Positions 7,561-9,029 of a stretch of 41,806 bases of DNA are shown here, piece by piece. Source of the DNA: a virus. Its lineage: Duplodnaviria; Heunggongvirae; Uroviricota; Caudoviricetes. The notes beneath the pieces were generated by a model that saw only the letters and a program-made list of their open reading frames with translations, was not told the origin of the DNA and did not search any database. The position numbers and the translations under genes are program-made. The stretch covers positions 1 through 41,806 of IMG/VR virus record IMGVR_UViG_2851955134_000003. One strand, written 5' to 3'. Position 1 is the first letter of the stretch, and each line of letters begins with the position of its first letter.

Positions 7561-7609
7561 CTTTAAATAATTCTGTACAGATTGCAGACTGTGGGTGAAT
7601 AGCGTACTA

Positions 7610-7624
7610 TTACCTTAAAGGTAA
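7610..7624. promoter_or_regulatory. Operator-like site TTACCTTAAAGGTAA just upstream of the RBS of the 69-aa/288-aa cassette
   Basis: Perfect 6-bp arms; 26 bp upstream of ATG 7651. Confidence 0.5.
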
Positions 7625-7650
7625 ACCATGTGTTTACATGAGGAGGAGAT

Positions 7651-7860
7651 ATGGGATTTTGGTTCGCTCGTACAAAAACGAGGGATAATGCACCCAGCCC
7701 TCAGGCAAAAAATGCAGAAGTTCCGGCGTCAGCGCAGGTTAACAAGCGTGGTGGTGTGTATATCTCATCACAGCAAATTTCTGAGCTTCCTGAGGTTAAG
7801 GAGATGCGTCGTCTCGCTGCTGCAATCGTTAAACAGGATCTTGCCACTGTAAGGAAATAG
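7651..7860 (+). CDS. Hypothetical small protein (69 aa), first gene of a two-gene cargo cassette
   Basis: Strong RBS GAGGAGG 6 nt upstream; its stop overlaps the GTG start of the next gene (TAGTG), indicating translational coupling. Confidence 0.55.
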   Translation: MGFWFARTKTRDNAPSPQAKNAEVPASAQVNKRGGVYISSQQISELPEVKEMRRLAAAIVKQDLATVRK

Positions 7861-8726
7861 TGTTGTTAGCTCTTCTAATTATCCCCATTCTGGTTAGTGG
7901 TTATATTATGATAACCGCTAACCAGTATCATTATTTCCGTTTATACCGACATGAAGGCCAGCTTCTTTATATGAAAGTAGCTGCATTAGGTACATATTGC
8001 CTTGTTGCTTCGGTAATAATTGCCGCATTTATAAAATATAAATATCCTGATTTTCACCTAGTTCACGATATGGTGGAAACTTTTAATGTAACGTCAAAAC
8101 CAGAAACAGATAGAATTTACATGTGGCTGCTTCTTCTCTCAGCCACATCCATTTGCTTCTCTTTGTGTTATGTGTCTGTTGTGTGGGTGAAAGATTTTCT
8201 TCTTGGTTGTTTTTATAAACGTGATATTTACGAGCAAAAAACAGAGGCAATGAAGGCCAGAGTACTGCGAAAAACTTACTCGCAAGGTTCTTTAGACTTA
8301 CTATTGCTTGATGCTATTGAATCGGATCCTAAACGACCAATGCTGATTACTTTATCATCAAACAAAGTGTATGTTGGAATAATAAATGGTTCTGGTGAAC
8401 CAACGGAAAATCAGGGTCCGCATCAGCACATATCTTTTGTTCCTTTAATGTCAGGATACAGGAACAAAGACAACTTATCTGTCACATTCACTAATGCTTA
8501 TCCAGGAGAAATACAGGTCAAGCGGACTGCAGCAATAAGAGGAATTAGCAGAAAGAAAGTGCCAGGACTTGAGATCATGGTGTCTATTGACGAAATAAGT
8601 TATATATCATGGTTTGATTTTGAAGTATATAAAGCAACAAATAACAAAGTAGAATCCAGGGGGCACGTTATTCGTGTTACCAAAAATGGAAGAAATATAT
8701 ATCAAAGAAATAGCAAAAAAGAATAG
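7860..8726 (+). CDS. Hypothetical membrane protein (288 aa): three N-terminal TM helices plus ~170-aa soluble C-terminal domain; candidate superinfection-exclusion/abortive-infection factor
   Basis: AT-rich ORF coupled to the upstream small gene, followed by an intrinsic terminator; the exclusion/defence role is inferred from position in the immI-like region, not from sequence similarity. Confidence 0.5.
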   Translation: MLLALLIIPILVSGYIMITANQYHYFRLYRHEGQLLYMKVAALGTYCLVASVIIAAFIKYKYPDFHLVHDMVETFNVTSKPETDRIYMWLLLLSATSICFSLCYVSVVWVKDFLLGCFYKRDIYEQKTEAMKARVLRKTYSQGSLDLLLLDAIESDPKRPMLITLSSNKVYVGIINGSGEPTENQGPHQHISFVPLMSGYRNKDNLSVTFTNAYPGEIQVKRTAAIRGISRKKVPGLEIMVSIDEISYISWFDFEVYKATNNKVESRGHVIRVTKNGRNIYQRNSKKE

Positions 8727-8748
8727 CCCGCGCTGCGGGCTTTTTTGT
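8726..8748 (+). terminator. Rho-independent terminator of the 69-aa/288-aa cassette
   Basis: GCCCGC-gct-GCGGGC hairpin followed by TTTTTT. Confidence 0.75.
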
Positions 8749-8818
8749 GGACGAAACAAAAGCCAGTGCTACACTCATTGACGCCACATTGAGGTGGCTT
8801 ATAGATGGAAATTTCACA

Positions 8819-8980
8819 ATGAAAAAAGCATTTGCTGCACTGTTCGTTTTGTTGTCTCTGGTAGCTTCAACTCAGGCCTTTGCCGGTCGTTGTCAGCACG
8901 ACAGCGATACTGCCGCTGACGGCTCCCGCTGCGGTGGGCGTTCTGCGGATTCCCGTCCGGGCGGCGGTGGCATTCGTTAA
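8819..8980 (+). CDS. Small secreted protein (53 aa) with signal peptide and two cysteines
   Basis: MKKAFAALFVLLSLVASTQAFA signal-peptide-like N-terminus then a Gly/Arg/Asp-rich tail; weak RBS, so uncertain. Confidence 0.35.
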   Translation: MKKAFAALFVLLSLVASTQAFAGRCQHDSDTAADGSRCGGRSADSRPGGGGIR

Positions 8981-9003
8981 AAACAAGGCCGCGAAAGCGG
9001 CCT

Positions 9004-9015
9004 GTGACATGTCAC
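9004..9015. repeat. Palindrome GTGACATGTCAC, copy 1 of 3 (14-mer CGTGACATGTCACA on the minus strand)
   Basis: Perfect 12-bp palindrome next to hairpin GGCCGC-gaaa-GCGGCC; identical 14-mers at 27215-27228 and 29433-29446. Confidence 0.6.
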
Positions 9016-9029
9016 GATAGTTCCTTTTT

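Follow-up and report, generated by a model that had tools for sequence, protein, structure and literature searches.

What is the segment that lies between two convergent anti-repressor (ant) genes in the prophage of IMG/VR record IMGVR_UViG_2851955134_000003? The whole stretch analysed, 41,806 nucleotides (nt) long and here called the window, carries at this place a coupled pair of genes for proteins of 69 and 288 amino acids (aa). The pair is bracketed by near-identical inverted repeats made of the 3' ends of the ant genes. The original prediction, drawn from the sequence alone, took the repeats as the hallmark of a recently acquired or invertible cargo and the larger protein as a candidate superinfection-exclusion or abortive-infection effector. 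The segment matches a chromosomal prophage of Escherichia coli AR_0085 at 100%. Sequence comparison identifies the window as a phiV10/epsilon15-like E. coli prophage of the genus Uetakevirus, with phiV10, TL-2011b and vB_EcoP_ZX5 (PMC9782041) as its kin.

Here we describe the segment as what appears, from comparison of related prophages, to be one allele of an accessory-gene slot in Uetakevirus prophages. The slot is framed on the left by a promoter and operator (7581-7624) and on the right by a terminator and the gene of a 53-aa peptide (8718-8980). The explanation that we prefer, and to which we give somewhat more credence than doubt, has three parts. The segment would be a slot allele, its two genes would encode a membrane-anchored Sm-like system that aborts or excludes competing phages, and its expression would be gated by the phage repressor.

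The accessory-gene slot and its regulatory frame

The borders of the cargo are defined by comparison with TL-2011b. Homology continues through the ant gene up to position 7626, is lost, and returns at 8718. The left border is two bases beyond an operator palindrome and the right border is just ahead of an intrinsic terminator (8725-8741, plus strand). The original prediction was right to see an exchangeable cargo but had it bounded by the repeats instead of these two positions.

The same site was compared across 85 loci, which were located by their 53-aa gene and of which IMG/VR supplied 80. The order of ant arm (the repeat at the end of the ant gene), frame, cargo, terminator and 53-aa gene is kept in 84 of the 85. 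Between these conserved flanks stand unrelated gene sets that form at least nine cargo clusters, the arrangement by which an accessory hotspot is recognised. The commonest cargo is a 59-aa protein with a YafO-family toxin (21 loci). It is followed by a DUF4760 protein (11 loci) and by a 193-aa protein, a 210-aa protein and the 69- plus 288-aa pair of the window (10 loci each). A 108-aa protein with a second YafO-like protein occupies nine loci, a 72- plus 125-aa pair six, a 113-aa protein with a DUF2335 membrane protein four, and a pair of membrane proteins of 62 and 110 aa three. A PADLOC v2 search of eight representative cargo sets (the 62- plus 110-aa pair was left out) gave nothing significant. 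Unrelated cargoes would most likely be swapped through homologous recombination in the conserved flanks. The DUF4760 cargo, at 4367-4906 of its locus, also occurs in P2 hotspot arrangements (PMC9122126, Table S5A) and is thus, besides the 69/288 pair, a second family common to both hotspots.

The right side of the frame includes a gene that had been overlooked. It spans 8819-8980 on the plus strand and belongs to phrog_14503, and its 53-aa product is 100% identical at the aa level in the 80 IMG/VR loci. The cassette of two genes originally described holds for the coupled 69/288 pair, but the segment as a whole contains three genes. The product of the third is predicted to be secreted, with a signal peptide cleaved between AFA and GR, two cysteines and a Gly/Arg-rich composition; its gene has a GC content of 57%. 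A hairpin (8986-9003) follows the gene. A 74-aa open reading frame (ORF) at 7628-7852 was rejected as an out-of-frame overlap of the 69-aa gene.

On the left side, the slot promoter and operator (7581-7624, plus strand) consist of TTGCAG-17-TACTAT, with 7 of 12 positions agreeing with consensus, and the operator TTACCTTAAAGGTAA at 7610-7624. The arrangement TTGCAG-17-TACTAT-TACC(N5)GGTAA is conserved ahead of eight of the nine cargo types, and cargo-specific sequence starts right after GGTAA. The perfect palindrome is retained in 73 of 84 loci. The window contains ten perfect TTACC-N5-GGTAA sites, where chance would give 0.12. Both the operator-like site and the terminator that had been ascribed to the cassette were recovered, the former as the palindrome at 7610-7624 and the latter at 8725-8741. 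The promoters at 35746, 26177, 6562 (c4/ant) and 7610 (the cassette) are built alike: in all four, the -10 element ends with the T that begins the operator. The promoter and operator of the c4/ant operon occupy 6533-6576 on the plus strand (TTGCAA-17-TATATT with TTACC-N5-GGTAA). The promoter at 35746, beside the repressor gene, is taken as the early promoter.

The repressor gene (35043-35627, plus strand) encodes the main repressor, a 194-aa protein with a Pfam HTH_3 domain, and is flanked by TTACC-N5-GGTAA sites at 34973, 35684 and 35746. The protein is 100% identical to the repressor of vB_EcoP_ZX5 (ORF21) and phiV10, and overexpression of the ZX5 repressor abolishes transcription of the lytic genes (PMC9782041). 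We infer that the main repressor binds the operator sites and that lysogens keep the slot repressed, though perhaps not fully. Expression of the cassette would probably be gated by this repressor, low in a stable lysogen and high upon derepression or infection. The operator regulon is dispersed, its sites including 26177, 29341, 32604/32666, 34973 and 35684/35746. Two operator pairs are exactly 62 base pairs (bp) apart, one downstream of the repressor gene and one downstream of a lambda-P-like replication gene.

Such control could also serve the phage itself. The cassette may benefit lytic growth, by exclusion of secondary infection, lysis timing, host takeover or anti-defence, and be switched on after removal of the repressor. 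The operator overlaps the start region with the geometry of the promoter beside the repressor gene, which predicts repression in lysogens and expression on derepression. However, the cargo is non-homologous between sibling phages and hence not a core lytic function, and the phage has its own holin genes elsewhere. Homologues of the pair in a P2 hotspot and in an island with Gabija and TIR genes (described below) also stand outside any such repressor-controlled frame. We consider a role in lytic growth improbable.

The slot resembles the gpA-gpQ hotspot of P2 and the psu-int hotspot of P4 (PMC9122126), where unrelated short accessory systems interchange between conserved flanks at a fixed site of a temperate phage. 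A homologue of the 69/288 pair is even listed there as system #57. The present slot differs in that it is found in Uetakevirus, downstream of an anti-repressor gene, and in that it provides a conserved promoter, a repressor-type operator and a terminator, which place all alleles under one regulatory frame. As far as the literature was checked, no earlier description of the Uetakevirus slot was found. For phiV10/epsilon15-like prophages of E. coli, among them those of O157 and Shiga toxin-producing E. coli (STEC) strains, the slot represents a new hotspot, with borders known to the nucleotide. Its cargo types, at least nine in number, are mostly unannotated and offer a mining ground comparable to the P2 and P4 hotspots. 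The shared operator-bearing promoter raises the question of whether some prophage accessory systems are deliberately tied to the state of the immunity switch.

The inverted repeat and the question of inversion

The inverted repeat itself is as claimed. The left arm (7303-7560, plus strand) and the right arm (9030-9287, minus strand) are complementary at 245 of 258 positions (95.0%). The edges of the arms are sharp, and identity drops to 35% outside (7200-7302) and to 17% inside (7561-7600). Each arm comprises the last 234 nt, or 78 codons, of an ant gene (222 of 234 positions matching) and 24 nt of 3' flank (23 of 24), which carries the hairpin GGCACA-GGGA-TGTGCC. The left arm is the C-terminal module of the Ant protein that is co-oriented with the cassette, followed by this hairpin, and the right arm is the C-terminal module of the convergent Ant. 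The domain encoded by the arms (phrog_450/15539) terminates many different Ant proteins and is also found alone, as a 90-aa ORF at 6258-6530. The inverted repeat exists only because this prophage has a second, convergent ant gene that ends in the same module.

The co-oriented arm is present upstream of the slot in 84 of 85 loci, and a convergent second arm is present downstream in only about 22 of the 85, all of which have the slot. The repeats are neither specific to the segment nor always found with it, the module being common to many ant genes. In 19 two-arm genomes, the left and right arms of the same genome share 95.5% identity. Between genomes the values are 95.8% (left with left), 95.6% (right with right) and 95.2% (left with right). 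Arm identity is alike within and between genomes and thus gives no sign of recent duplication or gene conversion; both were ruled out by this identity matrix.

Do the arms nevertheless mark a unit that flips between them, or that was recently inserted with them? The arms are long and 95% identical, and RecA-dependent inversion is physically possible. Both junctions expected from an inversion were constructed and looked for in E. coli genomes. Junction B, in which the unique sequence of the P22-type Ant would adjoin the promoter side of the cassette, is present in none of 5,426 complete genomes, and its best matches end exactly at the arm edge. Junction A, in which the Bro-N Ant adjoins the 53-aa end of the cassette, is present in 11 E. 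coli genomes. Two of these, CE0007a and MS8345, have a differently arranged locus with three ant genes. With respect to the tailspike gene and the gene of a 1004-aa virion protein, their cassette is oriented as usual, and a second C4 and Bro-N ant module lies across the cassette, next to a truncated P22_AR_N gene. The junction A genomes therefore indicate that N-terminal modules of ant genes are shuffled around a cassette of fixed orientation. The truncated P22_AR_N fragment is inverted relative to the window and abuts the second C4 and Bro-N module (4873-5310 of the CE0007a locus, 4873-5259 of the MS8345 locus). We take it as evidence, in the arrangement of these loci, of a past rearrangement at the ant genes.

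In all five loci in which both outer flanks were read, the cassette points the same way with respect to the tailspike and 1004-aa genes. Invertible segments, whether of the Hin/Gin/Cin type or mediated by inverted repeats, are recognised by both orientations among close relatives or in one population, and only one was found in the genomes compared here. A single fixed orientation is also the outcome that the original prediction had itself named as telling against inversion. CE0007a has the block 7264-9287, with both arms, at 98% identity to the window, but there it is joined to different Ant N-terminal parts. This block spans exactly from arm to arm, so the arms can act as recombination borders, and they probably supply homology for exchange of ant N-terminal modules. 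An invertible or recently inserted unit, which this property of the arms and the junction A genomes could favour, is nonetheless very unlikely. The reciprocal junction is missing, the orientation is constant, about three quarters of the slots have no second arm, arm identity within genomes shows no excess, and the cargo ends at the operator and the terminator, inward of the arms. The repeat is real, but its reading as a sign of mobility or invertibility is not upheld.

The 69/288 gene pair and its proposed role

The small partner of the pair is a 69-aa protein (7651-7860, plus strand; phrog_5739) that is predicted to be cytoplasmic. The 288-aa protein (7860-8726, plus strand) starts at a GTG codon and has three transmembrane (TM) helices, a helical linker and a predicted Sm/LSm-like beta-barrel. 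The stop and start codons overlap as TAGTG and each ORF is preceded by a Shine-Dalgarno sequence. The coupled operon with three N-terminal TM helices and a soluble domain was correctly predicted, and the hydrophobic segments are residues 1-22, 35-60 and 86-116. The segment had also been called an AT-rich island. This applies to the 288-aa gene (36% GC) but not to the 69-aa gene (48%, equal to the window mean of 48%), and the segment is only partly AT-rich.

The start of the larger gene was annotated differently in RefSeq, where the PGAP product WP_238004239.1 has 251 aa and begins at an ATG at 7971. The long form is supported by 23 homologues, in all of which the N-terminal motif LLIPILVSGY is unchanged. 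Conservation among homologues shows that the true start is GTG 7860 or TTG 7863. The RefSeq start removes the first TM helix from the annotated product, and the length of the protein is corrected here to 288 aa.

Neither protein matched Pfam, NCBIfam or PADLOC, and the PHROGs that contain them, 5739 (69 aa) and 3630 (288 aa), are families of unknown function. The pair is thus without a named family, as had been stated. General library scans (PHROGs, Pfam, PADLOC) gave no named exclusion family for the pair, and no comparison aimed at SieA was made. A profile search against the Protein Data Bank (PDB) and a search of BFVD gave nothing significant for sequence-level links. When PADLOC v2 was applied to the pair and 49 diverse family members, only a chance-level AbiEii match (E=0.009) was obtained, and Pfam gave no consistent match to the 49.

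The family is large. A profile search with the 288-aa protein collected 2,333 clusters at 50% identity (E<=1e-3), of which 897 remain at E<=1e-10. Most members have 250-340 aa and match from end to end. A small gene of 61-90 aa lies directly upstream of the homologue in all 18 loci examined, which span Symbiopectobacterium, Arsenophonus, Yersinia, Providencia, Brachymonas, Bowmanella and Acidobacteria. The constant presence of this gene makes the pair a conserved two-component system. The small partners align on the core VVGRG(T/G)(I/V)xV...S.EFK...A..IV. In an AlphaFold2 (AF2) model of the 69-aa protein the core folds into a beta-hairpin and a C-terminal helix, the helix modelled with confidence, and the N-terminus ahead of the core is disordered.

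The soluble domain of the 288-aa protein is modelled with the Sm/LSm/Hfq fold. The AF2 monomer has the N-terminal helix and the barrel of a five-stranded bent beta-sheet that define this fold. In a deep alignment the invariant residues of the barrel are K169, Y171, S198, G199, R201 and Y214, and for the loop residues S198, G199, R201 and Y214 a role in ligand binding is suggested. Hydropathy and the distribution of Lys and Arg favour an N-out/C-in topology, which would place the barrel in the cytoplasm. The domain has no sequence-level relationship to the small beta-barrels of Sm/LSm/Hfq and WYL proteins. It differs from them also in being fused to three TM helices, in always being found with a small partner gene, and in a low-confidence insert of about 25 residues (217-236). 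Full-text literature searches found no membrane-anchored Sm-like defence protein of this kind.

A mechanism can be proposed from these features. The Sm-like domains would form a cytoplasmic ring, as other Sm-fold proteins do, and the assembly would bundle 18-21 TM helices. The ring may bind a nucleic-acid or nucleotide ligand through K169, Y171, S198-G199-x-R201 and Y214. Activation would perturb the inner membrane and so abort or exclude the competing phage, and the 69-aa partner would either keep the complex inactive or act as a trigger adaptor. Beyond fold class and topology, these steps (oligomerisation, ligand, membrane damage and anti-phage phenotype) are offered with limited confidence. 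In its proposed logic, a sensor that triggers membrane damage, the pair is comparable to RexAB and to the TM effectors of CBASS, Pycsar and retrons. These are likewise encoded in short operons of phages or islands and combine a multi-TM protein with a cytoplasmic partner. The 69/288 pair differs from such membrane-effector abortive-infection systems in showing no homology to any of them in PADLOC.

The genomic context of the homologues points to phage conflict. One homologous pair, with 36% identity, is found in a P2-like prophage, where gpA and the portal gene flank it. This locus holds old and tin and has been shown to be a defence hotspot (PMC9122126). In the same study, system #57 (Table S5B) has 75 occurrences and no Pfam assignment and is outside the tables of tested systems. 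Its large protein is 37% identical to the 288-aa protein (E=2e-56), and its second protein has the VVGRG core. System #43, with 93 occurrences and also outside the tested-system tables, is a distant family member. Another homologous pair is located beside an integrase, between Gabija (GajA/GajB; AAA_15/OLD-TOPRIM and UvrD) and a SEFIR/TIR protein. Further homologues are near Ogr/Delta or RelB genes. Both the gpA-gpQ hotspot of P2 and a defence island with Gabija and TIR genes thus contain homologous pairs. Together with the toxin-antitoxin-like neighbours in the Uetakevirus slot, these homologues class the pair with cargo of phage conflict. This context is best read as pointing to a role in conflict between phages, for which the pair is a candidate. 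The original suggestion of a defence effector gains from the hotspot context; the PADLOC check that it proposed gave no match. The "three hypothetical proteins" system of P2 validated by Rousset was considered as a match and rejected, the family motifs being missing from the tested-system tables (PMC9122126).

The same neighbours allow a different function. The pair could be a toxin-antitoxin or addiction module with no anti-phage role, which stabilises the prophage or kills the cell upon its loss or induction. The toxin, a membrane protein, would then be the 288-aa product and the labile antitoxin the 69-aa product. The order of a small upstream and a larger downstream gene, coupled, fits this, as do the YafO-family toxins behind small ORFs in other alleles of the slot, the RelB antitoxin gene beside one homologue, and the disordered N-terminus of the 69-aa protein, which is common in antitoxins. 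However, the likeness is architectural, with no similarity to a known toxin-antitoxin family in Pfam or NCBIfam, and membrane toxins are typically less elaborate than a protein with an Sm-like ligand-binding domain. We regard such a module as unlikely. It overlaps with the abortive-infection explanation that we prefer, since the two roles do not exclude each other.

Several observations weigh against that preferred explanation. The pair is absent from PADLOC v2 and was not found in the tested sets of Rousset 2022, Vassallo 2022 and DefensePredictor. A hotspot location is guilt by association, and the cargo of the P2 hotspots extends to partition systems and virulence toxins (PMC9122126). The AF2 model is of moderate confidence, with a predicted local distance difference test (pLDDT) score of 73.6, and the topology is derived from a modest positive-inside bias. 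The slot promoter is weak by consensus (7/12) and was missed by a promoter scanner. If operator repression is tight in lysogens, the cassette would give no classic protection of the lysogen.

A bolder version of the explanation is doubtful and is put forward as a long shot. Here the 69/288 pair would be a new and widespread anti-phage system, a membrane Sm-like ring that senses phage nucleic acid or loss of its small partner and opens or disrupts the inner membrane, and the slot would be a repressor-silenced "tripwire". If this were true, the cargo, including the 69/288 pair, the YafO-like toxins, DUF4760 and others, would be silent under the repressor. It would fire only when the repressor is inactivated, for example by the anti-repressor of a superinfecting phage, and abortive infection would be coupled to attack on the immunity circuit. 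Irrespective of this version, the pair is a compact and easily cloned two-gene candidate for the anti-phage catalogue. It has an architecture without a described counterpart among those found and belongs to a family present across several bacterial phyla. The combination of a hotspot under a shared repressor-type frame with this uncharacterised two-gene family appears, as far as found, to be previously undescribed.

The anti-repressor region

The region is bounded on the left by the tailspike gene (3494-6076, minus strand) and on the right by the gene of the 1004-aa virion protein (11456-14470, minus strand). Next to the tailspike gene is the 90-aa ORF (6258-6530, plus strand) that encodes the stand-alone Ant C-terminal domain (phrog_450, E=3.5e-48). 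At the aa level its product is 40-44% identical to both Ants over their C-termini, and a TTACC-N5-GGTAA operator site lies upstream at 6181-6195. The 90-aa product may act as a mini anti-repressor or may modulate Ant. The ORF is kept beside the tailspike gene in TL-2011b, K_EC180, CE0007a and MS8345, and a comparable small ORF precedes the 69/288-type pair of a Providencia locus.

A P1-type immI RNA module follows on the plus strand (6600-6795, Rfam). It includes isrK (6613-6689; 74.7 bits, gathering score 50) and the C4 antisense RNA (6708-6795; 78.6 bits, gathering score 45), and its c4-a1b1 targets (6600-6652) score 39.9 bits, which is under the gathering score of 46.7. The 230-aa Bro-N anti-repressor encoded downstream (6844-7536, plus strand) is co-oriented with the cassette. 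It matches Pfam Bro-N (1.8e-13) and the phrog_130 Ant family (2e-50), and its RefSeq annotation names a BRO-N domain. Across the cassette lies the gene of a 314-aa anti-repressor with a P22_AR_N domain (9054-9998, minus strand; Pfam 3.6e-44). This is accompanied by a sar antisense RNA (10000-10067, plus strand; RF00262, 45.2 bits against a gathering score of 43), the P22-type immI control of the convergent ant. Domain and PHROG matches identify an Arc-like gene (10071-10274, minus strand) and a gene for a 153-aa Arc-family protein with a C-terminal extension (10329-10790, plus strand).

By these matches the prophage has two convergent anti-repressor modules, one under P1-type (C4) and the other under P22-type (sar/Arc) control. 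The immI region of P22 (mnt-arc-ant-sar, with sieA nearby) is alike in the sar RNA, Arc-family genes and P22_AR_N Ant of one side. That of P1 (c4-icd-ant) is alike in the C4 RNA, the a1/b1 targets and the Bro-N Ant of the other. The arrangement differs from both in that the two control types coexist convergently and the two Ants share a C-terminal module. Of the P22-like setting proposed for the cassette, sar, the Arc-family genes and the P22_AR_N Ant are present, but the phage is a Uetakevirus of the phiV10/epsilon15 type and not P22-like.

The presence of small RNAs on both sides of a gene with an Sm/Hfq-like fold offers a further possible function. The 288-aa protein might be a membrane-tethered RNA chaperone that acts on the neighbouring C4, IsrK and sar RNAs and tunes anti-repressor expression. 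Both ant genes that flank its gene are under small-RNA control, and one of these RNAs belongs to the isrK family, which binds Hfq. What speaks against this role is that homologues are also found where these RNAs are missing, in P2-like prophages and chromosomal islands. Sibling phages that have the same RNAs also carry unrelated genes in the slot, and we regard a chaperone as highly improbable.

The stretch at 10329-11444 is very AT-rich (30-35% GC). It encodes a 203-aa protein with an N-terminal TM helix (phrog_8033) and a weak ThsB/TIR-like PADLOC match (E=0.006), and it may be a second accessory or defence locus.

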